A stretch of DNA of 64,000 nt from Campylobacterales bacterium (GTDB lineage Bacteria; Campylobacterota; Campylobacteria; Campylobacterales; Hydrogenimonadaceae), in assembly GCA_027065515.1 (NCBI GenBank), contig JAMOOM010000151.1:8038-72037 (forward strand). Direction: 5' to 3'. The stretch's first letter is position 1. Each line of letters starts with the position of its first letter. Below the pieces are notes generated by a model that saw only the letters and a list, made by a program, of their open reading frames with translations, had not been told where the DNA came from and made no database searches. Both the position numbers and the translations under genes were made by a program. This document shows positions 3,259 to 34,003 of this stretch, in pieces.

Positions 3259-5089
3259 GAGATTTTCCTTTTTTTGTGATATCGTTTTGGGTTTTAAGCT
3301 CCAGAGAAATTTTATCGTCCACCGAGCGTATATGAATATCGCGTTGCGGAAAAGGAATTTCGATATTGGCTTCGTACAGAGCATCGTAAATAAGCATGAG
3401 AAAACGTGATTTTGTGCGGAGTGGATAGAGAATCTCTCCTCCTTTTATCCAGACGAAGAGTTCAAAATCGACACTGCTTTCGTTCATGCCAACCATAATG
3501 ACGCGGGTATAGCGTACAGAATCGGAGTAGATATCGCCAAAGCCACTCTTTTTGACTGCCTCTTTGATTATGCCCGCCACTTTGTGAACATCGTTGCCAT
3601 ATGCGACACCAAAGGGGATGCGAAATCTTTTTATTCTGTCGTTCATGGTCCAGTTGACGACACGGTTTTGCACAAGATCCTGATTTGGTATGATGATATC
3701 GATATTGTCGTTGGTGGTGATGGTCGTAGAGCGCATACGGATATCTCCGACATGTCCGCGTAAATTTTCGTCTATTTCGATGTAGTCTCCGATCTTGATC
3801 GTGTGCTCGAACATCAAGATCAGGCCTGAAACGAAATTGGATACGATGTTTTGTAAACCAAAACCTATACCCACAGATAGCGCTCCAGCTACGAGTGCGA
3901 TAGACGAGAGATTGATTCCCATGACATTGAGGGCGATGAAAAATGCGATGATGACGATCGCATAGTGGCCAAGATTTGACAGCAGCGTCTGGGTGGATTG
4001 AGTTAGCGTACTGTTTTTGTAGGCGAGGCGTTTGATGCTTTTTTTGTAGAGCCATCCGATAATGGTGCCGGCATAAAAGATGAAGATGGCCATAAAGAGC
4101 TTGAAAGCGCTGATTGGCGTACCGTTTATGGTGAAAAGTGGAGTGTTTATCTTTTGCCAAAAAAGAGACACCATCCGTTTCATCTCTTCGAGCGTTGCCC
4201 CTTTGATCGTCTCGGCTTTACCTAAAATCGCAGTCTCCATAGTGTTGAAAAGGGAACGGAAATCTTCCTGGACATCTTTTGGATAATGGATCTTTATGAT
4301 ATCCATAATCTCTTTTTGGAGCCTGAATACATCGGATTTTCTTTTATCGTGAAGGGCAGCCGAAAAGTCCACGAAAAGTTCGGTTAGTTTGCTGTTTATC
4401 AATTTTCGTTTTTTCGCTTTCAAAAGATCTATCTGCCTGTCGATCCGTTTGACGCCGCTGCTTCTTCCGAGCAGATCGAGCCGCTCTCTTTCGACATCGA
4501 GTTTCTGTATCTCCTTTTCCAGCTTTTCAAGAGATCTATCCAGCTTTCGAACTCTTTCGCGGGCGGCTTCCACATCGAAAGCGAGCTGTTTGACCCCTTC
4601 TATGAAAAGAGGAGCCGCTTTCGAGATAGCTTCTTCATAACGATCGAGTTTTTGCAAATATAACAATTTGCTTTTGAGATAAAATGCATACTGAAGCTGT
4701 AGTGTCAAAAGATCCGGTGAATCCGCTCTCTCTTTTTTGAGTTGATCGGCCGTCATGCCCAATTTGTTTTCGATCGATTCGACAGCTTTTTTGGCCCTGG
4801 ATTTGGATAGGGACCACTCGACAAACATACGGGTCAGATCCCGATACGCTTTTTCATCGGATGGGGCTTTGATTTTGATTTTTTCTACGGGCGGGTTTTT
4901 GGAGATATTGATCAATTTGTACAAAAGTGCCTGTTGCAAAGCTTTCGTATCGTCCATTCGTCCCTCTTTTTTCAGAGTGGCCAGCAAGGACTCGTAAATT
5001 TTGACATTGCCTCGCGCTATCGTGCTGTTTATGTCGGCCCCCCATAAAAAAAGAGAAAGAAGAATAAAAGCGGTGATATATCTTTTCAT
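3248..5089 (-). CDS. large mechanosensitive channel of the MscS family (MscK-like, periplasmic coiled-coil N-domain)
   Basis: 613 aa. It has an N-terminal signal peptide, a long charged helical region, then TM helices and the MscS beta-domain (GDYIEIDENLRGHVGDIRMRSTTITTNDN). Confidence 0.85.
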   Translation of the reverse strand: MKRYITAFILLSLFLWGADINSTIARGNVKIYESLLATLKKEGRMDDTKALQQALLYKLINISKNPPVEKIKIKAPSDEKAYRDLTRMFVEWSLSKSRAKKAVESIENKLGMTADQLKKERADSPDLLTLQLQYAFYLKSKLLYLQKLDRYEEAISKAAPLFIEGVKQLAFDVEAARERVRKLDRSLEKLEKEIQKLDVERERLDLLGRSSGVKRIDRQIDLLKAKKRKLINSKLTELFVDFSAALHDKRKSDVFRLQKEIMDIIKIHYPKDVQEDFRSLFNTMETAILGKAETIKGATLEEMKRMVSLFWQKINTPLFTINGTPISAFKLFMAIFIFYAGTIIGWLYKKSIKRLAYKNSTLTQSTQTLLSNLGHYAIVIIAFFIALNVMGINLSSIALVAGALSVGIGFGLQNIVSNFVSGLILMFEHTIKIGDYIEIDENLRGHVGDIRMRSTTITTNDNIDIIIPNQDLVQNRVVNWTMNDRIKRFRIPFGVAYGNDVHKVAGIIKEAVKKSGFGDIYSDSVRYTRVIMVGMNESSVDFELFVWIKGGEILYPLRTKSRFLMLIYDALYEANIEIPFPQRDIHIRSVDDKISLELKTQNDITKKGKSHEL

Positions 5090-5655: not shown

Positions 5656-5996
5656 TGCGCTCTTGCCTTTTCATCGATTTTGATGTTGTGCGTTTTATGG
5701 GCGCCGCCCGCGAGGTAGGCGAATTGTCTGCCCGCAGCTTTTTGTGAGCGTTTACGCTCTTTTTGTAAAACGCAGAATATCGGTCATATTGTAGCATTTT
5801 GCCGTCCGCTTGGATTTCAAGACTTCCTGTTTTGTATCATTATGCTTGAATGATGAAATACAAAATTATGAACGATAGCAGCCGATAAACGCTTTTGTGC
5901 TCTTGCCTTGCCTGCATGCCTCGAGTGTGCCTCCAAAAAGGTGTTCGTAGAGCTAAAAAGTATTATAATGGGTAAAACGCTTTAGGAGCTTTATGG

Positions 5997-7337
5997 ATGA
6001 AAAGAGTTATTGTGGCTACACTGTTTCTTGTTATTGGGATGTTGCTGGTATGGGTGGTTTTTGAGCCCAAGATAGCTCCTTATTATATGCAGCTTACGCA
6101 AGCGCGCGTGGGGCTTGAAAAAGATTTGCAGCCACCATCGCAGAAAGAGGCATCTTTTGTGGGTTCCGCTACATGCAAAAAGTGTCATGAAAAACGATAC
6201 GATCACTGGAAACATTCGCGGCACAGCAAAATGATTCAGGATATAAAAAAAGACCCAAAAGTTGTAGTGGCCGACTTTTCCAAGCTTCCAAAGGATGCCG
6301 ATTTCACACTCGAAGAAGCGGTATATACCATAGGAGGCAAATTCAAGCAGCGCTATATGATCGAGGCCGTGATAGATGGCAAAAAGGATTTCAGACTGGG
6401 GAATTATCAGTGGAATGTGCAGACGGGCAAATGGCAGCGCTTCAAGCCGTGGAAATATTGGTATCACGATGCTTATCCTCACGACAACCACAAATTTCCG
6501 ACTTCAAATACCTGCGACGGCTGCCATTTTACCGGATTTATGGCGATCGGAAAAAGAGTCGAGCCATCTATTGCATGTGAAAACTGTCATGGGCCGGGAT
6601 CCAACCATGCAAAAGACCCAGAAAACCCTCTCTATAAAGCCAGCCTGCATGATCCGATACGTGCCAATGAAGTCTGTCTGCAGTGTCATATGCGCAATCG
6701 GGACAAGCGGCTGGAGAAAGACCCCGACATCAGAAAGCTCTGGATGAAAGCGAAAGATTATCCCGCAGGCTACGAACCCGGCAGAGCACTTATAAAGTAT
6801 AAGCTTGCGGCCCCATTTATTTCAGGACGTGAAACGAAGGAGTTTTGGCCAAATGGCGCGGCCAAAAAGAATCGCACCCAGGGCAACGAGTTCGTCAAAG
6901 ATGCAATGTATCAACATGGTATAACCTGCATAAACTGTCACGATCCCCATAAGCTTACCAACACCGCCGACAAACCCGAAGGCAATGCCGCCTGCATGAA
7001 GTGTCACGGCTTCAATTCCATTATCGGACCTCATCAGGCCTCTCTTGAGGCGCATACCCACCATAAAGCCTCATCCAAAGGCTCGAAATGTATAGAGTGT
7101 CATATGCCAAAGACAGGGCGACACACCGGTAAATCGCCCCTGACCGTCAGGTCTCATATGTTCAGGTTCGTTTCGCCCGCCGAGACCAGAGCGTACGGTA
7201 TGCCCCCCGAAACCAATGCCTGCTACGCATGCCATAGAGACAAAAGCCTGGATCGCCTGCAAAAATCACTAGATGCATGGGGAGAGAACCAGTGGGCAAC
7301 CCAGGAGATACTGAGCCATTACCTGCTTGAAAAGTGA
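5997..7337 (+). CDS. membrane-anchored octahaem c-type cytochrome (c554/NrfA-superfamily-like)
   Basis: Eight CXXCH motifs (CKKCH, CDGCH, CENCH, CLQCH, CINCH, CMKCH, CIECH, CYACH). It has an N-terminal hydrophobic anchor (VATLFLVIGMLLVWVVF) and an AGGAG RBS 8 nt upstream. Confidence 0.85.
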   Translation: MKRVIVATLFLVIGMLLVWVVFEPKIAPYYMQLTQARVGLEKDLQPPSQKEASFVGSATCKKCHEKRYDHWKHSRHSKMIQDIKKDPKVVVADFSKLPKDADFTLEEAVYTIGGKFKQRYMIEAVIDGKKDFRLGNYQWNVQTGKWQRFKPWKYWYHDAYPHDNHKFPTSNTCDGCHFTGFMAIGKRVEPSIACENCHGPGSNHAKDPENPLYKASLHDPIRANEVCLQCHMRNRDKRLEKDPDIRKLWMKAKDYPAGYEPGRALIKYKLAAPFISGRETKEFWPNGAAKKNRTQGNEFVKDAMYQHGITCINCHDPHKLTNTADKPEGNAACMKCHGFNSIIGPHQASLEAHTHHKASSKGSKCIECHMPKTGRHTGKSPLTVRSHMFRFVSPAETRAYGMPPETNACYACHRDKSLDRLQKSLDAWGENQWATQEILSHYLLEK

Positions 7338-7402: not shown

Positions 7403-8332
7403 TTAGCGAATCAGCCAGCTTTTGAGTTGATTGGCGAATGTTATGGCCGAGTTTTGCGCCAGATTTTCGATATACTCTTCCAATTTGCTTTTTTCTTTCC
7501 AGTGCGCCTCTTTTACGCCGCTGAGCTTTTTCGTTATATCTTTTGCATCTTCTATCGATCCGATTTCATCTATAAGACCTACTTTTTTCGCCTTTTCCGA
7601 GATGAAAATCCGAGCATCGGCGAATTTTTCGGGATGTTTGGCATCCAGGTGGCGGGCATTTGCCACATCCTGAATAAAAAGATGATATATATCAAGCACA
7701 TGTGTTTCGATCTCTCTTCTTTCGTCCGGCGTCCATTCGCGAAATGGCGTACCTGCCTCTTTGTATTTACCGGCCTTGACTACTTGCGGCTTGATTCCCA
7801 GTTTGTCGGCAAGTCCTTTTATGTTCAGCCCCTCCATGATGACCCCGATCGATCCGATCGTAGCAGCAGGATTGGCTACTATTTTGCTGCTCCATATCGA
7901 TGCGTAGTAGCTGCCGCTGGCCATCGTGCCGGCAGCGTACGCCACTACCGGTTTTTTGGCTCTTAGCCGTTTGATGGCCATGGATATCTCCACGGAGGGT
8001 GCCACGGCGCCGCCTGGCGAATCCACAATGAAAAGCACCCCCTTGATCGATTTTTCCTTGCGCAGATCCGTAATCTCTTTTACCAGTTTGCCGGCATTCA
8101 TGATCGGGCCTGAAAGATTCAGTATGGCCAGATTGGGCGGCTTGACCGACTCGCTGCCAATTGGCGCGAAAAGAAGCAGGAGTATCAACAAGAAAAGCAG
8201 GGATTTGAAATATTTCTGAAAGAAATCGAGCGTAGATGTGATTGGCGAAAAAAGCTGTCCAAAAAAGCTGGAAACTCTCTTTTTGTCGGAAGCGGTATCG
8301 GCGTTTGGGTTATCTTTCTCATTTGATGGCAT
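7403..8332 (-). CDS. sppA: signal peptide peptidase SppA, 36K type
   Basis: 309 aa with an N-terminal TM segment and the ClpP/crotonase-fold motif VDSPGGAV containing the catalytic Ser region. Confidence 0.85.
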   Translation of the reverse strand: MPSNEKDNPNADTASDKKRVSSFFGQLFSPITSTLDFFQKYFKSLLFLLILLLLFAPIGSESVKPPNLAILNLSGPIMNAGKLVKEITDLRKEKSIKGVLFIVDSPGGAVAPSVEISMAIKRLRAKKPVVAYAAGTMASGSYYASIWSSKIVANPAATIGSIGVIMEGLNIKGLADKLGIKPQVVKAGKYKEAGTPFREWTPDERREIETHVLDIYHLFIQDVANARHLDAKHPEKFADARIFISEKAKKVGLIDEIGSIEDAKDITKKLSGVKEAHWKEKSKLEEYIENLAQNSAITFANQLKSWLIR

Positions 8333-9548
8333 GTTGTTTTCCTTTGATGTATAGTCGATCTACATTGTCTGTATGGAGGATAGCCTCAAGAACCACTTGA
8401 TCGGCGCTTTTTAGTTTCGACGGAAGAGTCACGACGGCTATATCGGCACTCATTCCTTCAGCGATTCGCCCGATCGGCAGATTCAGTGCGCAGGCGGCTA
8501 TGGACGTGCAGGCTCGTAACAGCGAGATAGCCAGTTTTCTCAGATCCTCATCGTGATGCATCATCAAAGCTGCCCGCATTTCGTCCCAGAGGCTGAGTGA
8601 AGTGTTGGAGCTTAGGCCGTCAGTGCCAAGAAGGCAGCCGATTCCCCTTTTTTGCAGCCTCTGGATCGATAGACGTCCGCATCCAAGAAGGCGGTTCGAG
8701 CGGGGACAGTGCGTTATGGTGTGGCCTGCATCGGCGATCTTGTCAAGAAGAGCATCGTCTGCTTGCACGGCATGGGTCAGCAGTACCCGTTTTCCCTTAA
8801 ACTGAGAAAGAAACTCTCCTGGTGTGGCAAGAGGCCTGTTTTGTTTCAGGAGATTTTCGAAAAACGGTTTAAAATCCCCTTCTCCTTTTTCAAGCCACTC
8901 TTTTTCGGCAGGCGACTCCATGAAATGGGCTGTCAAGAGCAAATCGCCATGCTCTTTGAGTATCTTTTTGATCAGGATGGGATGGACGGAATAGGCCGAA
9001 TGTATAGCTACGGCAGGTACGAATTTTTCGTTTGCAAGCTTCATGCTCTCGTGGAGCCTGGCTGAAAAATCATGATACAGTGCATCTACGGCGGCAGGCT
9101 GGGAGCCGATGGCTTCGTTGAAATATACGACACGCTGGGGCGCTGCATGGCAGGCGCGCATATCTTTCCCATAGCTGCTCACCGCTCCAAATGTGGTGAT
9201 TCCGCTTTGTGCCATCGCGTCGATCTGCTTTTTGTAGCAGGAGGCCCGGCAAGACTCCACGATCGTCTCCCGATGTGCGATGACACTTTGAAGCCAACCC
9301 ATGAAATCGCCATATTCGAGCTCCGTCGTGTGTGCTCCAAACTCGAGATGCACATGGGGGTTTACAAGCCCGGGTATGATAATCGTGTCTGCCTCGAAAC
9401 GCTCTATCGGTACATCGGGAAAGCGGGTTTCTAAAATTTCGGCAGAGCCCGTAGCGACGATATTTCCATCTTTTTCGTCGAAAGCGACAGCCATGTTTTC
9501 AACGATATTTTCCCCATCAAACAGCCATCTGCCGGCAAGTATTTTCAT
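8319..9548 (-). CDS. amidohydrolase-superfamily metallohydrolase (chlorohydrolase / aminodeoxyfutalosine-deaminase-like)
   Basis: 409 aa with an HVHLEF metal-binding motif near the N-terminus and TDGLSSN near the C-terminus. It sits next to sppA and aroQ, as in Campylobacter/Helicobacter. Confidence 0.7.
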   Translation of the reverse strand: MKILAGRWLFDGENIVENMAVAFDEKDGNIVATGSAEILETRFPDVPIERFEADTIIIPGLVNPHVHLEFGAHTTELEYGDFMGWLQSVIAHRETIVESCRASCYKKQIDAMAQSGITTFGAVSSYGKDMRACHAAPQRVVYFNEAIGSQPAAVDALYHDFSARLHESMKLANEKFVPAVAIHSAYSVHPILIKKILKEHGDLLLTAHFMESPAEKEWLEKGEGDFKPFFENLLKQNRPLATPGEFLSQFKGKRVLLTHAVQADDALLDKIADAGHTITHCPRSNRLLGCGRLSIQRLQKRGIGCLLGTDGLSSNTSLSLWDEMRAALMMHHDEDLRKLAISLLRACTSIAACALNLPIGRIAEGMSADIAVVTLPSKLKSADQVVLEAILHTDNVDRLYIKGKQHAIK

Positions 9549-9628
9549 CCATTATCCGTTTTTAGCGGATATTATGTCAAAAAAAGGTAAAATATTGAAT
9601 TAAGACTTCAATATTCAAAGGAAAAAGA

Positions 9629-10111
9629 ATGAAAATAATGGTTATCCAAGGACCCAATCTGAATATGCTGGGCGTTAGAGAACAGAATGTGTACGGCCCG
9701 ATGAAGCTGGAGCAGATTCATGAGCAGATGCGTGCTTTTGCGGAGCAAAATGGTGTCGATATCGAATTTTTCCAAAGCAACCTGGAGGGTGAAATAGTCG
9801 ACAAGGTCCAAGAGTGCCTTGGCGATGCCGATGGTATCATCATCAACCCCGCGGCATATACGCACACTTCCATCGCGATTCGCGATGCGATATCCGCCGT
9901 TGCGCTACCTGCGATAGAAGTGCATATCTCCAATATCCATGCCCGTGAAAAGTTTCGCCAAAAGAGCCTGATCGCACCTGTTTGTGCGGGGCAGATCACC
10001 GGATTTGGACCTTTTGGATACCACATGGCGATGGTCGGCATGATCCAGATTTTAAACGAAGTCAAGGCTATGCGGGAGATGCAACAGCAGCAAGAGGCTT
10101 CCCAGGCGTGA
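9629..10111 (+). CDS. aroQ: 3-dehydroquinate dehydratase, type II
   Basis: 160 aa. [18 protein letters not shown]..., [12 protein letters not shown] and [11 protein letters not shown] are hallmark AroQ motifs. Confidence 0.95.
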
Positions 10112-24594: not shown

Positions 24595-25638
24595 CTACAG
24601 TGTATTCATTTCGATGTTGTCGAAATTTCGACGGTAGTATCGCATATACAGAACCTTCTTTTCGAGTGCTTCTATGACCGTCTGGCTAAAGTCCACATCT
24701 TTGAAAAGATGGGTGTGATGCAGCCCTCCGGGACTGAATACATTGATCTCAAGCAGTTTATCGCCAACGATATCGAGCCCGACCAGAAACATACCGTCTT
24801 GGACAAGTTTCGGACGGACGATCTCCGCGATCCTCAACATTTCATCGGTCACTTCCGTTTCAGCCGCCCGCCCACCGGCATGGATATTCGACCGGATATC
24901 CTTTTCGGCGGGAATTCTCCTGAAAGCGCAATAGCGTCCATTCGACTGCAAAGGGACCCCGTTCATCAGAAACAAGCGCACATCGCCGTCGATGGCTTCC
25001 GGCAGAAACGCTTCGGCGATGGCATATCCGTCGCGAAAGACGGCATCGGCCATCTGGTGAAGATTCGCTGCATCGGCAGGCTGCACGAAAAAGACGTTGC
25101 GCCCTCCCGAACCCATCAGCGGTTTGATAATGATATTGTGATCGTGCGCTTCGTAAAAACGCTCGATCTCGGAAACATTTCTTGCGATCACCTTCTCGAC
25201 ACGTACCTCTTTCGGAAAATGTTGAAAATACATCTTGTTGATCGCTTTTGAAAGACCGTCCGGATCGTTGAGAACGATCACACCATGCCGCAATGCAGTG
25301 CGTCCGAAGACGATCGCAGCATGCTGTGCCCATGAGGATTGAACATCCTGGGCCGGATCGTTGCGAAGCATCAAGATATCGAGATCGTCCACGGTGATCC
25401 GTTTCTGTATCGCATCATCCGCACAGAGCGCGCCGTAATAACTCTTCTGATCCGAATAGTTTCCGGTTTCGACGCTTCTGGCATGGGCATGTACCATCTC
25501 GTCGCAGTTGTAGACGAAATCACCCACGCCCATCAGCCAGACTTCATGGCCCATCTTCGTCGCCGTCAATGCCAGCTGGATCGTGGAGCTGGGCAAGGGC
25601 TCGTGAAGAAGGTCGTTGATGACAAATCCGATTTTCAT
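24595..25638 (-). CDS. glutathione-synthetase-like (GshB-type) ATP-grasp ligase
   Basis: 347 aa. The N-terminus (MKIGFVINDL...ALTATKMGHEVWLMGVGDF) resembles the prokaryotic GshB N-domain and is followed by an ATP-grasp core (IIKPLMGSGGRNVF, GDVRLFLMNG, NIHAGG). It is the last gene of a four-gene overlapping operon. Confidence 0.75.
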   Translation of the reverse strand: MKIGFVINDLLHEPLPSSTIQLALTATKMGHEVWLMGVGDFVYNCDEMVHAHARSVETGNYSDQKSYYGALCADDAIQKRITVDDLDILMLRNDPAQDVQSSWAQHAAIVFGRTALRHGVIVLNDPDGLSKAINKMYFQHFPKEVRVEKVIARNVSEIERFYEAHDHNIIIKPLMGSGGRNVFFVQPADAANLHQMADAVFRDGYAIAEAFLPEAIDGDVRLFLMNGVPLQSNGRYCAFRRIPAEKDIRSNIHAGGRAAETEVTDEMLRIAEIVRPKLVQDGMFLVGLDIVGDKLLEINVFSPGGLHHTHLFKDVDFSQTVIEALEKKVLYMRYYRRNFDNIEMNTL

Positions 25639-27542
25639 ATGTATCCTTTTTCGATCAGATCCAGAATACTCAATCTCTTATTCCGTATCTCTTCAAGTCT
25701 CGCTTTTGCGGACTTTTCCTCAAGCCAGCGAGGCCAGAGCGGCGGTTTTTTCAAAATCTCTCTCCACTGCAGCTCTTCGATCAGAGGGATGTGTTCGGCC
25801 GCGATCTTCCCGACAAACAGAGGCTCCAACGCACCGCCATCGTGCAGATAGTCGAACAGTCCGACCAACCCGCGCAGATAGACCGCATCTTTCGTCAACC
25901 CGCCCCCCCTGAATACACGTGTCGTGATCGTGAAGGCGCTCTTCTCGCCAAACAGGTAGCGTTCATGCAGCTGCCGGAACGTCTCTTCGAAAGAGCTTCC
26001 TTCACAAAGCATATGCACGGCAACCACCCGTGCCGCCAGGATTCTTAGGCGCGCTTTGCTGATGCCCCCGCTGAGATATTCGGAGAGAACGGCAATCCCC
26101 TCCTGCATCTCGTCATAACCGCTAAGCCCCGTATGGAGCTGTTTGAAAGGCTGAGCGAGGCCGTTCGTGTAGGTCAGTATATGGGTGCCGATCTCGTGAT
26201 GAAGCAGTGCTTCGACTCTCTTTTTGGGAAAATGCGCCCATTTGGAGATGAAGAAATCTCCACCGGAGACCATCGCTCCGGAGACGATATCTTCACGAAT
26301 CTGCACGGAAGAACGCATCGACGGATAGAACGTTTTGTAGTATGCGATCTCTTCATTCGCATACTCGGCAAACGTTTCGGCATCCACAGTATCCGTTTCG
26401 GCATCGGCCTCGAGATTCCGCTGTTCATGGGGGAGGTGTTCGAGCATCGTTTCCGCCGTTTCAAGCAGTGCGTTTTCGACCTTTCCGTAGGCGGGAATAC
26501 TTCCATAGAGAAAATTCGGCGTGTCGCGGTCGGAAAGCATCGTCAATTTACGATCGAGCTCTTCGCGCTTCTGGCTAAAAAGCTCCATCAGTGTCGGATC
26601 TTCGATCTTTCCGATGGGAATGTCGTAGAGCGCACGTTTCATCTGCGGAATGTCGAAGGGCCTGGGCCGGTAGAGGAAATGGGGTGTTTCCGCATATCCT
26701 TTCGCTTTGAAGCTACCCCATGCCTCCTCCGTATTGACAGGGGTGACCTGTAGAAGAAAGTCGAACGCATCGTCGATTTCGGCCAAGGCGTTGTCCACAT
26801 CCCAAACGACTTTCGTGACAAGCCGCCGTCCCATCATCGCATAGTGGGTGGGGCAGCTGCCGGTCAATGCCACGGAAAAGCGGTAAAAAGCGTTTTTAAG
26901 CGCTTTCGCAACCCCTTTTCGGATTCCTTCGAGTTCGATAGGATAGAGTGTTTTCCCTGTCTCGTCCTGATAGACGGGTGCGACGCCGAGTCCGAGGAGA
27001 TAGGTGTTGCAGCGTTGCAATACATCTTTTTCCAAAAGCGGGGGGAGCGTTGCCGGGGCGACGCTTTTACAGCGTGCAATCTGCACATGGGCGTGAAGCC
27101 GGTGAAGCGTAACTCTTTCCAGCCAGTTCCGAAGTGTTTCTACGGTAGAAAGGAGTTCCTCCGGCTGCTCCGAACAGATCCTGAACGCCGGTGACCGCTT
27201 CGTTTCCGTTTCATCGCAAAAGGCTTCGTGCGGCAGCGTCCAGAGCTCGACGATCAAGAAATGCCCAAAGATTTTCGACATGGTTTCGGCAACGGCTTCG
27301 AGCAAGGATGCGACATTCTCGCCTCCCAAAACCGTCAGATAGGAAGCCTCGCCATATACGAGACGTTCGGTGCCCACATCCGCCCTCTCTTTCGGCTTTC
27401 GATAGACACAAAGAAATGGAAGCTGCCGGTCGATATGAATCCGTCCGCCACCAGGAAGTTTTTTTCTGATGGCCCGATTGGCCTGAATATCCGCCGTTAC
27501 ACTCTCGATGAAGTCTCGATCGATTTTCACCGATCCATTCAT
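25635..27542 (-). CDS. DUF1704-family putative metallocarboxypeptidase ('flavohaemoglobin expression-modulating QEGLA-motif protein' family)
   Basis: 635 aa with an HHEIGTH metal-binding-type motif followed by DEMQEGIAVLSEYL (QEGLA-like). It has 4-nt overlaps with both neighbours. Confidence 0.7.
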   Translation of the reverse strand: MNGSVKIDRDFIESVTADIQANRAIRKKLPGGGRIHIDRQLPFLCVYRKPKERADVGTERLVYGEASYLTVLGGENVASLLEAVAETMSKIFGHFLIVELWTLPHEAFCDETETKRSPAFRICSEQPEELLSTVETLRNWLERVTLHRLHAHVQIARCKSVAPATLPPLLEKDVLQRCNTYLLGLGVAPVYQDETGKTLYPIELEGIRKGVAKALKNAFYRFSVALTGSCPTHYAMMGRRLVTKVVWDVDNALAEIDDAFDFLLQVTPVNTEEAWGSFKAKGYAETPHFLYRPRPFDIPQMKRALYDIPIGKIEDPTLMELFSQKREELDRKLTMLSDRDTPNFLYGSIPAYGKVENALLETAETMLEHLPHEQRNLEADAETDTVDAETFAEYANEEIAYYKTFYPSMRSSVQIREDIVSGAMVSGGDFFISKWAHFPKKRVEALLHHEIGTHILTYTNGLAQPFKQLHTGLSGYDEMQEGIAVLSEYLSGGISKARLRILAARVVAVHMLCEGSSFEETFRQLHERYLFGEKSAFTITTRVFRGGGLTKDAVYLRGLVGLFDYLHDGGALEPLFVGKIAAEHIPLIEELQWREILKKPPLWPRWLEEKSAKARLEEIRNKRLSILDLIEKGYI

Positions 27543-28384
27543 AGTTTTACACCCATCTTTTTCAATGAATGCTCGATGCCAGGCATGGCGGACTTCAGAA
27601 GAGTATGGATTTTTTCAACCTTCAATAGATCGATATGTCCGCTCCACTCATCCATAAAAAATTTTTTGATTTCGATCGAAAGAACACATCCTGATTCTTT
27701 GAAATTGCTGTGAATCCATTCAGCCATATAGCCTCCCTGGAACTTGACGTTTTCACGCACATCCAGCGTTCGGCCGAAATAGTCGAACCTCTGCAAATCG
27801 CTCATAAATGTTTCGATGAGCGGTTCCCAGAGTGTCCGGTTCCAAAGTGTCGCGGTTCCGACATTGATATCGGGATTCATCCGAGGGTCTTCCGGCGGGG
27901 CATCGGGCCCCTCCCGCCGATGATTGTAACTGTGCAGGTCCAAAACGACGAAAAATCCATACCTCTCTTTCAGGTTGGATAAAAATTCGTAAAGCTCTTT
28001 GTAAAAAAGATCGTAGAGCCCCAGTGCATGTTCGATCATCTTTTCGTTTGGAAGGCACTCCCACACGTCCAGTCCCCATGCATCTTCGGGTTTTAGATAG
28101 ACCGCCTTCTCTCTGGGTCGGTTTAGATCGACAAGAAAACGGGAAGCCGAAACCGTCAGGCGGTTGTCGGCGATCGATGTCATACGATAGGTGCATGGAT
28201 CCTCTTCGCGAAGTCTCGTCGCTTCATCGATCGCGATAAATGCGGCGACTTCTTCGGATAGATCGTGCCCGTCATGGATTGCAGCCGCGACAATCGGGCC
28301 TTCCGCCGGGCACATTGTCCACTGCCGTCGGCTCATCGAAAATTTCCGGGCGATAGACTCCGGATCGCAAATTGGCTTATCCAT
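27539..28384 (-). CDS. N-formylglutamate amidohydrolase (FGase)-family hydrolase
   Basis: ATG at 28384 (MDKPICD) overlaps the upstream stop (TGATG) and follows GAGGAGGAAAGG. FGase-family motifs are SRFLVDLNRP and VVLDLHSYN. Confidence 0.7.
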   Translation of the reverse strand: MDKPICDPESIARKFSMSRRQWTMCPAEGPIVAAAIHDGHDLSEEVAAFIAIDEATRLREEDPCTYRMTSIADNRLTVSASRFLVDLNRPREKAVYLKPEDAWGLDVWECLPNEKMIEHALGLYDLFYKELYEFLSNLKERYGFFVVLDLHSYNHRREGPDAPPEDPRMNPDINVGTATLWNRTLWEPLIETFMSDLQRFDYFGRTLDVRENVKFQGGYMAEWIHSNFKESGCVLSIEIKKFFMDEWSGHIDLLKVEKIHTLLKSAMPGIEHSLKKMGVKL

Positions 28385-28803
28385 CACCTTTCCTCCTCGC
28401 AAAGTTCCTCCTCGATTCGAGGCAGAAGAAGCCGTTTGAGCTGGTGAATCGTCCGCTCGTACGCTTCAAAAGGCTTTCCATCGGGATTTTCGAAACCTAT
28501 ATGGATCACTTTTTTCGCACCCGGCAAGACCGGACACGCCTCTTTGAGGTTGTCGCATACAGTTACCACCAGGTCGAAATCCCTGCGCTTCAAATCATCC
28601 AGACCCTTCGACCACAGATGCTCGGTTTCGATTCCGTCTTCTGCTAGCACCTGTAGCGTTTCGCGATCGATACTCTCTTTCGGGACGATACCCGCACTCT
28701 CGGCATGGAGGTTGCACGAACGTTTCAGATGGTGGTTGACCAGTGCTTCGGCCATAATGGAGCGGGCCGCATTGCCTATATCCAATATCAAAATTCTTTT
28801 CAT
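28384..28803 (-). CDS. ArsC/low-molecular-weight phosphatase-fold protein with Asp in place of the P-loop cysteine
   Basis: 139 aa. The P-loop region reads ILILDIGNAARSIMAE, where the canonical sequence is LCTGNSCRSQMAE. It retains VVTVCDNLKEACPVLPG and GFENPDG. Confidence 0.7.
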   Translation of the reverse strand: MKRILILDIGNAARSIMAEALVNHHLKRSCNLHAESAGIVPKESIDRETLQVLAEDGIETEHLWSKGLDDLKRRDFDLVVTVCDNLKEACPVLPGAKKVIHIGFENPDGKPFEAYERTIHQLKRLLLPRIEEELCEEER

Positions 28804-28848: not shown

Positions 28849-29031
28849 GGGTCAATAGAGTCTGAGAGGATGATTGAGGTGGCGACTCGAATCTCTTTGT
28901 GATAAAGGGCACCTCCAAAGTATTTAGTGCTATCTTGAAGTACTCTATGGGAATTGAAATATAGAAGAATTTGATTTACTTTATGATAAAAAAATAAACT
29001 TCAAAGGACTCTGTATGGGAATTTTTATCTT

Positions 29032-29052
29032 GGGCCGCGTTTGGAGCGGCCC
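29032..29052 (-). terminator. GC-rich hairpin 4 nt after the rhodanese stop (possible terminator, no U-tract)
   Basis: GGGCCGC (29032-29038) pairs with GCGGCCC (29046-29052) around a 7-nt loop. Confidence 0.35.
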
Positions 29053-29056
29053 GGAA

Positions 29057-29461
29057 TTACTTCTGTATGTGGGCTTTATGTGCGGCTATCATATCTTCGA
29101 TGTTGGCTCCTAGGACAAAAACGTTTTCGTATCCAAGCGCTTCGAGATAACCCATCACTCGGTTAGCAAACCATCCTTTGAGGCATGCTACGAGGATTGG
29201 CGTGGTTTTGTCTTTCGGTAGAATATCAAGATAATTGGTGAAATCTGTATAGGGAGTGTAATAGGCATCTGGAATGTCGGCTTCCTCTGCGTTTTCGCCA
29301 TTCACTTTGGCAGGAGGACGAACATCCAGCAAAATAGCTCCTACCTCGCGTATCAGCTCTGCACCCTTTTGCATATCTACATTCCCAAGACCCGGTTTCT
29401 CTTTGTCGAGGGCGATCGCTGCTTCGATTCTTTCAACGATATTTTGATCCAATGTCGTCAT
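29057..29461 (-). CDS. single-domain rhodanese-like sulfurtransferase
   Basis: 134 aa with rhodanese topology (ILLDVRPP...) and a candidate active-site loop PILVACLKGWFANR. Confidence 0.7.
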   Translation of the reverse strand: MTTLDQNIVERIEAAIALDKEKPGLGNVDMQKGAELIREVGAILLDVRPPAKVNGENAEEADIPDAYYTPYTDFTNYLDILPKDKTTPILVACLKGWFANRVMGYLEALGYENVFVLGANIEDMIAAHKAHIQK

Positions 29462-29660: not shown

Positions 29661-31793
29661 TCAAGACAGAAATATCCTTCCGATCTGATAGACCGATACG
29701 CTCGTGCCGTATGCCAAAAGCGGAAGAAATAGGATCTCGAAAATCGCCAATCTCCATCCGAACTCCTCTTTGATTGCAGCGATTGTAGAGATGCACGGAA
29801 TATATAGCAGAACGAAAACCATATAGCTATAGGCAGCCAATGGCCCGTCGAACTGACTTTTTAACCGCGTCTGAATTGTACCGGGCGCAGGCATATCCTC
29901 TTCGCTGCCGCCGCTTAGAAAGAAGAGATTTCTCACCGATGCGATCAGTGCATCTTTCAGTGCCGCCGCCTGCTGTTTCGTATCTTCCCACAGATCGTGA
30001 GGAGATGGTTCTCTCCGGACTGACTCGATCCCGTAGATTGTCCCCAGCGACCCTATCACCACCTCTTTGGCGATGGTTCCGGGAATCAGTGCCGCCACCG
30101 GCTCCCAGTGTCTGCCGAAGCCTGCAGGCTCGAAAAGTGGTGTGACGATTTTGGCTCCTTTGGCGAGATAGGAGTCGTGAATATCCGCATCAGACGGAAG
30201 ATGGATGACACCCCACAAAACGATGGATGCGGCAACGATGACAGTTCCCGCGCGCACGATGAAATCTTTCAATCTCGGCCACATCAATACCCAAATCGCC
30301 CTGAATGTCGGCATGTGGTAGGCGGGAAGTTCCAGAAAGAATGGCTTCATACCGCTTTTTGGCAGTATTCGGTTCGCAGCCCAGGCGATAAGAAGTGCGA
30401 TTGCGACACCTATAACATAGAGGGAGATAATGATCTCCGCCCGATTCTCTTCGAAAAAGAGTGCCGTGAAGAGGGCATAGATGGGCAGTCTTGCGCTGCA
30501 GCTCATCAGGGGAATCGTCAAAGCTGTGATGATGCGCTCTCTTAGACTTGTCATTGTACGGGTGGCGTAGATCGCCGGAACGTTACAGCCAAATCCCATG
30601 ATCATCGCGATGAAGGCATTGCCTTTGATTCCAAGCGATCGCGCCAACCGATCGAGCAGAAAACTGACACGCGCCATGTAGCCGCTCTCTTCTAAAAGTG
30701 CCATCAAGAAGTAGAGAAAAAAGAGCAGAGGTAGAAACGACAGCACCAGCCCGACACCGTTGATGACACCGTCGACGAGTAGCGAATCGAGCCATGACGG
30801 CAGATGGACACTCAAAAGTGCATGCAGATGAGGCCCGATGTAGCCTTCGAAAAAACCTCCCGTCCACTCTACCAGCGGGGCGCTGGCATCGAAGGTGATT
30901 CTGAAAAGAAGATAGAGGATCGCGAATAGAATCGGGAACGAATAGAACCTGTGCAGAGCAACCGCGTCGATGCGCTCGCTGAGTGCGACCCTGTCGACCA
31001 CGGGCTCTGTCAAAACCTCTTCGAGGATTCTGTCTATCACCTCGTAACGGGAACGGGTGATGATTGTTCGAATCGGAAGCTTTATATGGCACTCCAGTCG
31101 CTTTCTCGCACCTTCGGCGAAACGAAGAACCTCTTCGGCATACGCTTTTTGTGCCAATTCGACGGCGAAGGCATCGTTTTCGATCAGTTTGATGGCAAAG
31201 AGGCGTTTCGGATAGGGAAACACTCCGGCTTGTTCGATTTTTCGCATCAAAAACGCGACCTCTTTTTCGATATGCTCCTGGAGAGGCTGAATCCGGGGCC
31301 TCTTTCCCTCTTTGATCGTTTCGATCGCCCGTGCGATCACCTCTTTGGCCCCAAGGCCTGCCGAGGCGACGGTGGGTACGGCGTAGGCCCCTAAAATCTC
31401 CTCCAGCCGTTTCAGATCGAGCGTGTATCCGCGCCGCGTGAAGTCGTCGAACATATTGAGCGCGAGAACCATCGGTTTTTGCATGTCGATCAGTTCGAGC
31501 GTCAGATAGAGATTTCTGCGAAGATTGGTCGTCTCTATGATATCGACAATTCCGTCCGGCGGTTCGTACGCGAGAACGTTTCGGGTGATCTTCTCTTCTA
31601 TGGAGTAGGGGCTTAGCGTGTAGGCACCCGGCAGATCTACGAGCGAAATGGATTCACCTTCGTATCGGAATGTAGCCTCTTTTTTCTCGACCGTCACGCC
31701 GGGCCAGTTGCCGACCTCCAGGTCACTTCCGGCGATAGCGTTGATCAAGGCCGTTTTTCCCGTATTCGGATTGCCCACGAATGCGATTTTCAC
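29661..31793 (-). CDS. feoB: ferrous iron transporter FeoB
   Basis: 710 aa with a GTG start overlapping the feoA stop. The N-terminal G-domain reads KIAFVGNPNTGKTALINAIAG and DLPG, followed by a polytopic membrane domain. Confidence 0.95.
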   Translation of the reverse strand: MKIAFVGNPNTGKTALINAIAGSDLEVGNWPGVTVEKKEATFRYEGESISLVDLPGAYTLSPYSIEEKITRNVLAYEPPDGIVDIIETTNLRRNLYLTLELIDMQKPMVLALNMFDDFTRRGYTLDLKRLEEILGAYAVPTVASAGLGAKEVIARAIETIKEGKRPRIQPLQEHIEKEVAFLMRKIEQAGVFPYPKRLFAIKLIENDAFAVELAQKAYAEEVLRFAEGARKRLECHIKLPIRTIITRSRYEVIDRILEEVLTEPVVDRVALSERIDAVALHRFYSFPILFAILYLLFRITFDASAPLVEWTGGFFEGYIGPHLHALLSVHLPSWLDSLLVDGVINGVGLVLSFLPLLFFLYFLMALLEESGYMARVSFLLDRLARSLGIKGNAFIAMIMGFGCNVPAIYATRTMTSLRERIITALTIPLMSCSARLPIYALFTALFFEENRAEIIISLYVIGVAIALLIAWAANRILPKSGMKPFFLELPAYHMPTFRAIWVLMWPRLKDFIVRAGTVIVAASIVLWGVIHLPSDADIHDSYLAKGAKIVTPLFEPAGFGRHWEPVAALIPGTIAKEVVIGSLGTIYGIESVRREPSPHDLWEDTKQQAAALKDALIASVRNLFFLSGGSEEDMPAPGTIQTRLKSQFDGPLAAYSYMVFVLLYIPCISTIAAIKEEFGWRLAIFEILFLPLLAYGTSVSVYQIGRIFLS

Positions 31794-32050
31794 ACGCTTT
31801 CCTTCTTTTCTTCTCTATGTGGTCGAGAAATCGGCTCCACATCGATCTTTCGGGCATCCTCTTCGCGCAAAGCGATCTTTTCGTTCCCGAAGCTAAACTC
31901 CAGCGGGTCACCGAGCGGTGCCCTGCGCAAAAGCTGTACCGTCTCGCCGCAAAGCAGCCCAAGCTCCATCAGCCGGTCTCTGAGTTCGCCGAGATCACCG
32001 ATCGTTTTGACGATCGCCTTCTGTCCGGGCTGAAGATCTGCCAATTTCAT
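31790..32050 (-). CDS. feoA: ferrous iron transport protein FeoA
   Basis: 86 aa. MKLADLQPGQKAIVKTI...LRDRLMELGLLCGETV is the FeoA SH3-like domain. An AAGGTGG RBS lies upstream. Confidence 0.9.
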   Translation of the reverse strand: MKLADLQPGQKAIVKTIGDLGELRDRLMELGLLCGETVQLLRRAPLGDPLEFSFGNEKIALREEDARKIDVEPISRPHREEKKESV

Positions 32051-32229: not shown

Positions 32230-32324
32230 AAAAAGATTTTTATGGTGAAATCGAAAATATTTTCTTGAAGCCTTCTTTTGCAAAGAAAACCAAGCCGAAG
32301 CGTATAAAGTGTATAATCGACCTT

Positions 32325-33332
32325 ATGGAAAAGAGATTTGAACAACCGCCCGTGCGTCACAACGGGGCAGGGGAACTTCGCAAAGTAGGTTTCGAGCTGG
32401 AGTATGCGGGTCTGACGCTTTCTAAAAGTGCCGCTATCGTACTCAAGGAGGTAGGTGGACATATCGATATCGTCAATCCCTATCACTATAAAATCAGAGA
32501 TACGAGATACGGCACCTTTACGCTGGTGCTGGATTTTCAGTTTCTTGTGGAATCCGGGCTCGAAGAGTGGCTTCATACCATAGGGCTCGACCAGGCGCTC
32601 GAAAAGGATACGATAGAAGCAATGGAGAGATTTATCGCCGATCTGTCGGAAACGGTGGTTCCTCATGAAATTTCTACATCTCCTCTCTCGCTGGACAATC
32701 TGGAAGTGATCGAAGAGATCAAAGAGACATTGCGAAAACATGGTGCTCTTGGTACCAAGGCCGACCCTCTCTATGCGTTCGGGTTTCATATCAATCCCGA
32801 GGCGGCACGTATAACGGTGGACGATATTTTACGCACTCTTCGCGCTTTTTTTATCCTTTATGACTATCTCGTGGAGATTATTCAGCCGGATATGACCCGC
32901 CGCATTACTCCCTATATCGATCCATTCGAGGACGACTATATGGAAATGGTGCTCGATCCATATTACGATCCTACGATGCCGCAGCTGATCGACGACTATG
33001 TGGAGTACAACCCCACCAGAAACAGAGCACTCGATCTTTTGCCCCTCTTTGCATGGATCGATGTGGACAGGGTGATGGAGAAGATGGAGGGCGAAAAGAT
33101 CTCCGCGCGACCGACATATCACTACCGTCTTCCCAACTCCAGAGTCGATGAGGTGCAGTGGTGTACCTGCGATGCATGGAACAGCTGGGTGCTTGTTGAG
33201 AGGCTCGCTTTCGACGACGACGCTCTCGCGGAGCTTGGAAGCGAGTGTCAGGACTATCTTTCATCGCCTTTTAGTTATTTCCAAAAGGATAAGTGGATAG
33301 AGAGGGTGAAGCAGTGGGTTCAAAAGCGGTAG
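32325..33332 (+). CDS. putative amidoligase (glutamine-synthetase/GCS2-like 'amidoligase enzyme' family)
   Basis: Motifs KVGFELEYAG, VVPHEISTSPL and YAFGFHINPE fit the amidoligase family pattern. The start is uncertain: ATG at 32325 lies 7 nt after a TATAAT (32312-32317), which suggests a leaderless mRNA. TTG at 32265 is the longest ORF. Confidence 0.65.
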   Translation: MEKRFEQPPVRHNGAGELRKVGFELEYAGLTLSKSAAIVLKEVGGHIDIVNPYHYKIRDTRYGTFTLVLDFQFLVESGLEEWLHTIGLDQALEKDTIEAMERFIADLSETVVPHEISTSPLSLDNLEVIEEIKETLRKHGALGTKADPLYAFGFHINPEAARITVDDILRTLRAFFILYDYLVEIIQPDMTRRITPYIDPFEDDYMEMVLDPYYDPTMPQLIDDYVEYNPTRNRALDLLPLFAWIDVDRVMEKMEGEKISARPTYHYRLPNSRVDEVQWCTCDAWNSWVLVERLAFDDDALAELGSECQDYLSSPFSYFQKDKWIERVKQWVQKR

Positions 33333-34003
33333 TCGTTGTCACCGGATCTTCGCGCGGAAGCAAAACGGCGTGGCTTGCAAGCCGTTTCCTGCTTCGGCTT
33401 TTTGGTGTGAAAGTTCGTTTTTTTCATCCAGGATCGTGGGACGAGTCTGCGCATATGCATGGAGTGCTGATCACCGGGGGTATCGATATCGATCCATCCA
33501 CCTACAAAGGAGCGCATCACCCCTCCATCACCAAAAGCGATCCGGAGCGTGACGCTATGGAGTTGGCATTGTTGAAGCGTGCCGAAAAAGAAGGTTTGCC
33601 TGTCATGGGAATCTGCCGCGGGATGCAGATGATCAATCTTTTTTATGGCGGAACGCTACATCCGCATGTTCACGACCTGGATCTCTCCTATCCCCATCCG
33701 CATACACCTTTGCCCCTTCGCGAGGTGATAATCGAGCCAAAAACCAGGCTCCATGAAATACTGCACTCTTCCAAAATCAAAGTCAATGCGCTGCATCATC
33801 AGGCCGTAGATCGCCCAGGCGATGGCCTGCGTATCGCCGCGCGAGATAAAAATGGCCTGATACAGGCGATCGAAGGAGAGTCGGAACGGTTCGTAACGGG
33901 GCTTCAGTGGCATCCGGAATTTATGCCGTACGCTTGGCACAGCCGCAGGATTTTCGGTGCGCTTGCAAAGGCAGCGAAGGTCGCCAGACGGCAGATGCGA
34001 TGA
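33314..34003 (+). CDS. class I glutamine amidotransferase-like gamma-glutamyl hydrolase (peptidase C26 / PuuD-like)
   Basis: Motifs PVMGICRGMQMIN (nucleophile Cys) and LQWHPEF (His). The start is GTG at 33314 after GAGGGTGA, or ATG at 33293. Both overlap the amidoligase 3' end. Confidence 0.8.
   Translation: MGSKAVVVVTGSSRGSKTAWLASRFLLRLFGVKVRFFHPGSWDESAHMHGVLITGGIDIDPSTYKGAHHPSITKSDPERDAMELALLKRAEKEGLPVMGICRGMQMINLFYGGTLHPHVHDLDLSYPHPHTPLPLREVIIEPKTRLHEILHSSKIKVNALHHQAVDRPGDGLRIAARDKNGLIQAIEGESERFVTGLQWHPEFMPYAWHSRRIFGALAKAAKVARRQMR

Follow-up and report, generated by a model that had tools for sequence, protein, structure and literature searches.

A GshB-like ligase, a MATCAP-type metallopeptidase and an FGase-fold amidohydrolase form a conserved bacterial gene cluster, a candidate writer/eraser module for peptide extensions

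Results

Organization of the operon

The window analyzed here is a stretch of 64,000 nt from a Campylobacterales contig, to which all coordinates refer unless another locus is named. Judged by its best named relatives, it stems from a Hydrogenimonas-like member of the Campylobacterota. Its minus strand carries, at 24595-28803, an operon of four open reading frames (ORFs) (Table 1). Three of them, coding for an FGase-fold amidohydrolase, a 635-aa protein with a metallopeptidase domain of the MATCAP type and a GshB-like ATP-grasp ligase, constitute a unit that recurs in many bacterial lineages and is the subject of this work; the fourth, coding for an ArsC-like protein, precedes them in this genome. 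That the four ORFs are chained by overlaps of 1-4 nt, as claimed in an earlier note on this DNA, was evident from their coordinates and from the junctions themselves. The stop codon of the ArsC-like gene and the ATG of the FGase gene share one nucleotide at 28384 (TGATG in AGG TGA TGG), the FGase gene and the gene for the 635-aa protein overlap in an ATGA at 27539-27542 (CTATGAATGG), and the latter gene and the ligase gene overlap in another ATGA at 25635-25638 (ATATGAAA). Start codons overlapping the preceding stop codons are the classic arrangement for translational coupling. A mechanical ORF list placed the FGase ORF at 27539-28402 (287 aa from an upstream TTG); the ATG at 28384 was chosen as start codon because the orthologues have 281 aa.

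A candidate sigma-70-like promoter is located 24 nt upstream of the ATG of the ArsC-like gene. It is only suggestive, because sigma-70-like sites are no commoner in this region than in shuffled sequences. A gap of 253 nt and a GC-rich hairpin (29030-29054) lie between the four-gene unit and the rhodanese gene upstream, and downstream of the ligase gene a convergent gene for a flavoprotein of the HI0933 family follows. The motifs quoted in the earlier note (HHEIGTH...MQEGIAV, SRFLVDLNRP, VLDLHSYN and DIGNAARS) were all found in the proteins, and the four family assignments made there pass the curated cut-offs of profile hidden Markov models (HMMs).

Table 1. Location of the genes, domains and signals discussed in the text; positions refer to the window unless a locus is given.
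Feature	Position	Strand	Remarks
LMWPc/ArsC-like protein	28384-28803	minus	139 aa, first gene of the operon in the window
FGase-fold amidohydrolase, divergent subfamily	27539-28384	minus	281 aa from ATG; first gene of the conserved triad
Two-domain protein with MATCAP-type peptidase	25635-27542	minus	635 aa
Predicted second, divergent FGase/carboxypeptidase-like domain	26808-27542	minus	aa 1 to ~245 of the 635-aa protein
MATCAP-type (DUF1704/QEGLA) HExxxH metallopeptidase domain	25695-26714	minus	aa 277-616 of the 635-aa protein
GshB-like ATP-grasp ligase, PRK12458 subfamily	24595-25638	minus	347 aa, last gene of the operon
Candidate sigma-70-type promoter TTGACC-17 nt-TATGAT	28855-28827	minus	consensus scan, 10/12 matches
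Rhodanese-domain gene	29057-29461	minus	upstream of the operon
FeoB gene	29661-31793	minus	upstream of the operon
FeoA gene	31790-32050	minus	upstream of the operon
Amidoligase_2 gene	32265-33332	plus	PF12224, 3.3e-57; overlaps the next gene by 40 nt
Peptidase_C26/class-I GATase gene	33293-34003	plus	PF07722, 3e-47; gamma-glutamyl-GABA-hydrolase-like
Asp-variant ArsC-like gene, Hydrogenimonas urashimensis	L084: 4355-4768		
Asp-variant ArsC-like genes, three Hydrogenimonas genomes	L087-L089: 5001-5414		

Conservation of the three-gene core

A scan of one genome per GTDB species gave at least 519 relatives, and the gene content of the best 80 loci was scored by tblastn with the window proteins. 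These 80 loci span about 20 phylum-level groups, including Campylobacterota, Chloroflexota, Planctomycetota, Poribacteria, Bacteroidota, Acidobacteriota, Gemmatimonadota, Ignavibacteria, Calditrichota, Actinomycetota, Myxococcota and Gammaproteobacteria. The FGase gene was found in 74 of 75 loci and the GshB-like gene in 77 of 78, and both stand beside the MATCAP-like gene in 72 of the 73 loci with enough flanking sequence, which bears out the co-occurrence of DUF1704, ATP-grasp and FGase genes for which a census had been proposed beforehand in the earlier note. Because the core recurs at this frequency across so many groups, chance is far from sufficient to explain its arrangement. The order FGase, peptidase, ligase is kept in all but three of the 72 loci, and in these three the FGase gene follows the ligase gene. 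Approximate junction gaps have medians of +3 nt (FGase/peptidase) and -3 nt (peptidase/ligase), with the peptidase and ligase genes typically overlapping by about 4 nt. The most conserved gene of the triad is that of the ligase, whose product shares 44-78% identity with the window protein across phyla and 53-61% in most loci.

More than one ligase gene is present in seven loci, three of them with three ligases. These tandem loci (L023, L035, L051, L054, L073, L077 and L078) come mostly from Planctomycetota, including Scalindua, and the ligase arrays suggest multi-step or diversified ligation in those lineages. L051 and L078 also contain a second MATCAP-like gene, directly followed by a ligase gene in each case. 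The overlapping junction of peptidase and ligase genes and their joint duplication therefore point to a functional, possibly physical, pair.

Sinorhizobium meliloti carries the triad on pSymB, and related rhizobial replicons have it as well; the annotations there read N-formylglutamate amidohydrolase, QEGLA protein and glutathione synthase. The form found in Vibrionaceae is diverged: a DUF413 gene lies upstream, and the ligase gene is present or absent. The sole census locus with the peptidase alone is that of the uncultured bacterium LOGT_bin.0176 (L071), in which neither an FGase nor a ligase gene was found within 8 kb of the long-form MATCAP-like gene (8001-9851); the neighbors of the latter are a CNNM gene at -14 nt and a CorA gene at +4 kb.

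Domains and predicted structures of the core proteins

The C-terminal part of the 635-aa protein (aa 277-616) matches PF08014 with 328.3 bits (cut-off 27), and the protein reaches 359.6 bits with the TIGR02421 'QEGLA' model (cut-off 338.65). Its metal motif is HExxxH (H449-E450-x-x-x-H454), as in MATCAP, and not HExxH; H449, E450, H454 and Q480-E481-G482 of the QEGIA motif are invariant among 49 homologues. With phmmer, human KIAA0895L/MATCAP was matched at an E value of 1.6e-3, and the human HEIGTH...EEGLA aligns with the bacterial motif. An AlphaFold2 model of the full protein was calculated from the 49 homologues (predicted local distance difference test, pLDDT, 91.5; predicted template modelling score, pTM, 0.87), and in Foldseek searches its C-terminal half matched human MATCAP (7z5g/7z6s) with E values of 3e-9 to 1e-8 and target-normalized template modelling (TM) scores of 0.67-0.71. 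The earlier note had given DUF1704 as the family of MATCAP; this agrees with the predicted structure and with the current Pfam name of the family, which is 'MATCAP'. We conclude that the protein is a predicted carboxypeptidase of the MATCAP type with an intact catalytic motif. No DNA-binding domain was detected in it by profile and fold searches.

The other Foldseek matches of the model were the FGase structure 2q7s (E value 1.5e-3, probability 1.0) and folds of the PNP/MTAN type, which we assign to the alpha/beta N-terminal ~245 residues. An FGase-like fold was adopted for this predicted domain because an independent profile-profile comparison with the FGase family of the operon agrees with Foldseek (E value 1.2e-4, probability 55%, with FLIVELW aligned against VVLDLHS). 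His151, invariant in the FGase family and probably a metal ligand, corresponds to a Trp in the N-terminal domain. On the model, the 635-aa protein thus appears to carry a second, degenerate FGase-like domain, which has the invariant motif G-R-x-H-I-D-R-x-L-P-F-L. A search of 1.84 billion representatives found the domain in 621 clusters at 50% identity. Among the 150 clusters listed, full-length proteins measure ~590-720 aa and have the domain at their N-terminus or close to it, and among these matches it is therefore specific to the peptidase fusion.

Two variants carry the same NCBI name as the long form. Pseudoalteromonas xiamenensis (L086, 5845-7215) has a stand-alone short form of 456 aa without the N-terminal domain. 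In Vibrio sp. HDW18 (L091, 4317-6308), the 663-aa Vibrionaceae form is encoded behind a DUF413 (MaoP) gene and a gene for an HdfR-type LysR regulator, and neither an FGase nor a ligase gene is annotated within 5 kb. The Vibrio plasmid form aligns to the window protein only over ~aa 180-600.

The 347-aa ligase has the domains GSH-S_N (PF02951) and GSH-S_ATP (PF02955), which were detected in a profile search at 2.8e-48. It passes the NCBIfam subfamily model NF009110 (419 bits, cut-off 408) and lies below the cut-offs of both glutathione synthase equivalogs (NF003573, 207.1 vs 272 bits; TIGR01380, 198.1 vs 299.05 bits). Its score was 207 bits on GshB models and only 55 bits on RimK models. In the alignment with E. 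coli GshB (1gsa, E value 2.6e-38), K160, the GxGG loop, R210, R225, R233, N235, R241, D273, E281 and N283 are kept, so that the flexible-loop arginines and the ATP-grasp catalytic residues are intact. By these scores the ligase belongs to a separate subfamily and is not an orthodox glutathione synthetase. A TTL-type ligase was ruled out: no TTL Pfam match was obtained, and the enzyme is of the GshB clade.

The 281-aa protein scores 69.2 bits with PF05013 (cut-off 28.9). Neither the HutG equivalog nor any other NCBIfam model matched it, and no hut genes were found beside its gene in the window or in the 80 loci. Sequence searches, with the single sequence and with a profile of 44 sequences, found no relatives in the PDB, and fold comparison alone was successful. 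The AlphaFold2 model (pLDDT 91.4) had 2q7s as top Foldseek match (E value 8e-12, TM score 0.69-0.72), followed by 2odf and then by M14 carboxypeptidases, the poly-gamma-glutamate hydrolase YndL and the succinylglutamate desuccinylase AstE. FGase, M14, YndL and AstE are all enzymes that cleave an amide beside a free carboxylate. H37, R82, D86, N88, R89, H151, E211, H225 and E238 are among the residues invariant in the family.

The ArsC-like gene

The ArsC-like protein belongs to the LMWPc family (PF01451, 67.3 bits) and stays far below the cut-off of the ArsC equivalog TIGR02691 (52.9 vs 174.3 bits). Its P-loop is D-I-G-N-A-A-R-S instead of C-x-G-N-S-C-R-S, corresponding to the exchanges Cys->Asp8 and Cys->Ala13, and C83 and C90 align with the relay pair C82/C89 of pI258 ArsC. 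The term 'Cys-less' used in the earlier note is correct for the P-loop, from which both cysteines are gone, but not for the whole protein, in which Cys30, Cys83, Cys90 and Cys135 remain. Among the 120 homologues listed, 101 have the P-loop CxGNSCRS and the 16 closest have DxGNAARS. The latter make up 16 of the 18 closest 90%-identity clusters among the matches listed, the other two being CTGNSARS intermediates; homologues listed farther down are canonical. Those DxGNAARS members that have a name are from Hydrogenimonas and annotated as 'arsenate reductase ArsC'. Members of the DxGNAARS subclade are 61-99% identical to the window protein, an identity range which indicates that the subclade is under selection. 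The subclade has gained C30 and C135 and keeps C83 and C90, except that C90 is absent in one of the 16 clusters.

In the tblastn census, the ArsC-like gene was found in none of the 80 loci. In three Hydrogenimonas genomes (L087-L089), the Asp-variant gene occupies the same synteny slot with other genes replacing the triad; the slot is bounded by a LapD-like GGDEF/EAL gene, in two of the three also by a VIT1-family gene, and by an MscS gene. In H. urashimensis (L084) the triad occupies this slot, after a DUF4282 gene. Contigs with a 92%-identical peptidase have a canonical arsR-arsC pair and a gap before the FGase gene instead. The idea that an ArsC-like gene is usually the first gene of the cluster thus had to be abandoned: the gene is absent from 80 of 80 loci, and its Asp variant occurs without the triad. 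For the same two reasons the conserved unit comprises three genes, not four. We interpret the TGATG overlap in the window as a sign of local co-expression rather than of a conserved partnership, and the ArsC-like gene is, from its distribution, a lineage-specific passenger.

Neighboring genes, search for a substrate gene and expression

When the 7,827 ORFs of the 80 loci with a length of at least 40 aa were clustered all against all, no conserved small gene or precursor emerged near the core. Nor was anything recurrent seen among the same-strand ORFs that end close to the individual FGase starts; shadow ORFs alone clustered. The remark in the earlier note that no substrate gene is evident nearby therefore holds for all 80 loci, in so far as a conserved one is concerned. 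Directly upstream of the FGase gene there are lineage-specific small genes, mutually non-homologous and not conserved across loci: a 46-aa ORF overlapping the FGase start in L081-L083 (~5026-5166 in L081), the DUF4282 gene of L084 (4779-5105) and a 70-aa hypothetical gene in S. meliloti (L085, 5850-6062). These are probably not a common substrate.

Unbiased clustering with confirmation by Pfam showed that the commonest families among the non-core neighbors were MscS (17 loci), CorA (13) and MgtE (9), followed by the MscS transmembrane-helix family (8), MgtE_N-CBS (6), CNNM/CorC (6) and an SLC12-like permease (6). At least one channel or transporter family was present in 32 of the 80 loci and in 25 of the 47 loci that span at least 15 kb. 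In 15 loci such a gene lies within 300 nt of the core, in 11 of them on the same strand. A planctomycete locus (L040) has a gene for an MgtE-type Mg2+ transporter between the MATCAP-like and GshB-like genes (~5750-7181), and in L043, L045, L060 and L074 a block of genes for a mechanosensitive-channel transmembrane-helix protein, MgtE_N-CBS and MgtE follows just downstream of the ligase gene.

The genes upstream of the operon in the window code for a rhodanese-domain protein, FeoB and FeoA. In H. urashimensis feoAB directly follows the ligase gene, so that triad and feoAB are neighbors in both genomes, in different order. The window also contains, 3.5 kb from the operon and on the plus strand, a second ligase/hydrolase pair (32265-34003), composed of an Amidoligase_2 and a Peptidase_C26 gene. 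Iyer, Abhiman, Burroughs & Aravind reportedly described in 2009 amidoligases (ATP-grasp or GS-like) encoded beside peptidases and predicted them to make or modify peptides. The triad follows this logic too, and we take the pair in the window to be one of their pair types. For the rhodanese gene, the FeoB gene and the Amidoligase_2/C26 pair no matches were found in the 80 census loci.

The searchable literature yielded no functional or explicit bioinformatic description of the bacterial cluster, in line with the earlier note, which knew of no experimentally defined function; Iyer et al. 2009 may mention it. Expression data exist for a diverged relative. In an RNA-seq comparison of Photobacterium damselae with 1% vs 3% NaCl, the overlapping GshB-like/QEGLA pair, which is located on chromosome II, was upregulated 38-fold and 27.5-fold, respectively, and RimK 52-fold (PMC10308900). 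The peptidase owes its NCBI name to PA3697 of P. aeruginosa, which was reportedly linked to the activity of the promoter of fhp, the flavohemoglobin gene (Koskenkorva et al. 2008, as cited in PMC8070244).

Discussion

A tentative three-enzyme writer/eraser scheme

We propose that the three enzymes of the conserved unit work as a writer/eraser module in the cytoplasm, a reading which we regard as quite possible, if somewhat short of probable. GshB and RimK extend a C-terminal carboxylate: the terminal carboxylate is phosphorylated and an amino acid is added. MATCAP-family enzymes trim C-terminal residues off acidic tails, and FGase, AstE, PghP and M14 enzymes cleave N-acyl-Glu-type amides beside a free carboxylate, with which the structural neighbors found by Foldseek agree. 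Other pairs of a writer and an eraser are TTL/MATCAP, cyanophycin synthetase/cyanophycinase and glutathionylspermidine synthetase/amidase. In the proposed scheme, the ligase of the GshB/RimK clade would activate the free terminal carboxylate of an acceptor, encoded outside the operon, as acyl-phosphate and add an amino acid. The 635-aa protein would act as HExxxH zinc carboxypeptidase of the MATCAP type and strip the added C-terminal residues, and the FGase-fold amidohydrolase would cut the remaining small N-acyl-amino-acid or dipeptide-like remnant. In this simplest arrangement, what the writer makes would be dismantled from the carboxyl end by two erasers. We favor this scheme because it fits the enzymology of GshB/RimK, MATCAP and FGase-fold enzymes as well as the tight pairing of ligase and peptidase. 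In the RimK/RimB precedent, glutamates are added by a ligase and removed by a protease that is co-transcribed with it, and RimK also yields free poly-alpha-glutamate (PMC7343187, PMC11957791).

The product of the module would be acidic and of the glutamate type, which we prefer over one dedicated protein substrate; candidates are free oligo-glutamate, gamma- or alpha-glutamyl peptides and possibly acidic protein tails. Turnover of this product would buffer the cytoplasmic pool of glutamate and counter-ions during osmotic or Mg2+/K+ shifts. A link to osmotic and ionic homeostasis is suggested because MscS, CorA, MgtE and CNNM genes are neighbors of the core and because the Photobacterium pair is induced at low salinity. 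These details on glutamate and osmotic function are held with less confidence than the three-step scheme itself.

Several points weigh against our proposal. The direction and chemistry of the steps, the acidity of the product and the physiological role are drawn by analogy, and glutamate as the added residue is argued from family precedent only. The counts of ion-channel neighbors are raw numbers without a formal genome-background control, and the operon in the window has no ion-channel neighbor, the sole MscS-like gene lying ~20 kb away (~3320-4160). The Photobacterium pair belongs to the diverged Vibrionaceae subfamily, so that transfer of its regulation to the triad is uncertain; no FGase gene was found near the Vibrio plasmid member and none was seen in the Photobacterium data. 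Co-expression of a ligase with two hydrolases would amount to futile cycling if it were not regulated, and a regulator is not evident. The N-terminal domain, in which H36, D38, R39 and E99 are invariant, may be catalytic rather than a binding module. Finally, a writer/eraser model leaves the link of PA3697 to the flavohemoglobin promoter unexplained.

Alternative explanations

The same enzymes could instead tag the C-terminus of a specific housekeeping protein encoded elsewhere, reversibly and in the manner of RimK/RimB on S6 or TTL/MATCAP on tubulin. Such a role would suit a peptidase whose family works on protein C-termini and whose structural match to that family is clear, as well as a ligase of the same ATP-grasp clade as RimK, whose target is a protein tail and whose gene is transcribed together with that of its eraser. 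The tight coupling and joint duplication of ligase and peptidase would also be understandable, and an operon without a substrate gene is what a housekeeping target would lead one to expect. However, the ligase is GshB-like and retains GshB's N-terminal domain for small substrates as well as its loop arginines, the FGase and the additional FGase-like domain share a fold whose known members work mostly on small N-acyl amino acids and short peptides, and no candidate acceptor was identified. We therefore judge this explanation unlikely, though by no means far-fetched. Synthesis of glutathione, or of another gamma-glutamyl or low-molecular-weight thiol peptide, with the hydrolases recycling the product, is quite improbable in our view. 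It accords with the two GshB Pfam domains, the match to 1gsa (E value 2.6e-38) with its conserved substrate-loop arginines, the name glutathione synthetase of the subfamily NF009110 and the automatic NCBI name 'glutathione synthase' of the ligase, and the ArsC-like, rhodanese and Amidoligase_2/C26 genes lend the window a thiol/gamma-glutamyl flavor. Yet the ligase scores well under both equivalog cut-offs (207 vs 272 and 198 vs 299), no gene of the gshA/GCS type is present among the conserved neighbors of the 80 loci, the triad is conserved without the ArsC-like gene, the Photobacterium pair sits on chromosome II, and turnover of glutathione normally needs no MATCAP-type peptidase plus FGase.

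A further possibility is the salvage or catabolism of an imported N-acylated amino acid or small peptide, derived for example from osmolytes or the cell wall, in which the ligase would re-use the product or activate the substrate. Hydrolases of the amidohydrolase or carboxypeptidase type account for two of the three enzymes and for three of the four catalytic-type domains, and transporters are common nearby (an SLC12/APC-like family; ABC systems in S. meliloti). The conserved neighbors, however, are mostly ion channels and not nutrient importers, no cognate binding protein or permease is conserved, the ligase gene is the most conserved one, and its translational coupling to the peptidase gene would be unusual for a purely catabolic route. 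On balance salvage appears improbable. Chance juxtaposition or an annotation artifact, or a 635-aa protein acting mainly as transcriptional modulator of flavohemoglobin, we consider extremely improbable. The latter idea draws on the origin of the NCBI name, since PA3697 reportedly affected the activity of the fhp promoter (cited in PMC8070244). Against both stand the conservation of the triad, with overlapping reading frames, in 72 of 73 loci of ~20 phylum-level groups, the intact metallopeptidase site together with the lack of a DNA-binding domain in the searches described above, and the absence of a flavohemoglobin gene from the conserved neighbors of the 80 loci. Chance juxtaposition is essentially refuted by the census for the three-gene core and holds only for the membership of the ArsC-like gene.

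Significance

The long-form MATCAP family is locked in an operon with a GshB-type ligase and an FGase across ~20 phylum-level groups. The triad is visible in databases, but under names that are uninformative or probably wrong, and thus represents a large 'known unknown' that is accessible to experiments, with pSymB of S. meliloti providing a model host and Photobacterium a diverged pair. Leads for such work are an acidic C-terminal substrate, the extra FGase-like domain, the link to mechanosensitive and Mg2+ channels and the induction at low salt. Taken to its furthest, the proposed writer/eraser scheme would make the triad an ancient and widespread prokaryotic system for C-terminal (poly)glutamyl-type extensions, in which the MATCAP side of the tubulin 'tail code' would have its bacterial root. 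By means of the triad, osmotically active glutamate would pass into and out of an inert pool of oligo-glutamate, or the tail of a housekeeping protein, which would help cells through osmotic and Mg2+/K+ shifts alongside MscS, CorA and MgtE. This extended version is speculative, and we rate it as rather unlikely. Should the writer/eraser idea as such prove right, bacterial physiology would gain a new reversible system of peptide ligation, the origin of a eukaryotic cytoskeletal enzyme would become clearer and thousands of database annotations could be corrected.

Comparison with known systems

MATCAP was recognized as a tubulin detyrosinase only in 2022. The C-terminal 340 aa of the bacterial protein share with MATCAP (KIAA0895L)/TMCP the family PF08014, the HExxxH...E(QEGxA) site and the predicted fold, and the peptidase has an ATP-grasp ligase as its partner, as is the case in the tubulin cycle. 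The parallel to TTL/MATCAP is an analogy. Sequence identity is only ~20%, the bacterial protein has an additional N-terminal domain with the predicted FGase fold, its partner ligase is of the GshB clade, and an FGase is present as an obligatory third enzyme. Moreover, neither tubulin nor a known acceptor is present, and the eukaryotic pairing is not a genomic one.

The RimK/RimB(/RimA) system of Pseudomonas, which polyglutamylates ribosomal protein S6, resembles the triad in that the gene for a ligase of the RimK/GshB clade lies beside that of a dedicated hydrolase, and it responds to the environment (PMC7343187, PMC11957791). The erasers differ: RimB belongs to the aspartic endopeptidases that resemble retropepsin, whereas the triad would use a metallocarboxypeptidase of the MATCAP type, together with an FGase, which the RimK system lacks. 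With GshB (1GSA) the ligase has in common its build of two domains, its ATP-grasp catalytic residues and the arginines of its flexible loop; unlike GshB, it falls into an NCBIfam subfamily of its own (PRK12458/NF009110), and its gene is linked to two hydrolase genes rather than to gshA. The FGase-fold protein, lastly, resembles relatives of HutG (2q7s, 2odf) and the M14/AstE/PghP-YndL fold in its PF05013 match and in a TM score of ~0.7, with His, Asp/Glu and Arg residues conserved where the metal site and the carboxylate-binding Asn-Arg pair are expected. It differs from HutG by the lack of a hut context and of an equivalog match, and a second, apparently degenerate copy of its fold is fused to the peptidase.

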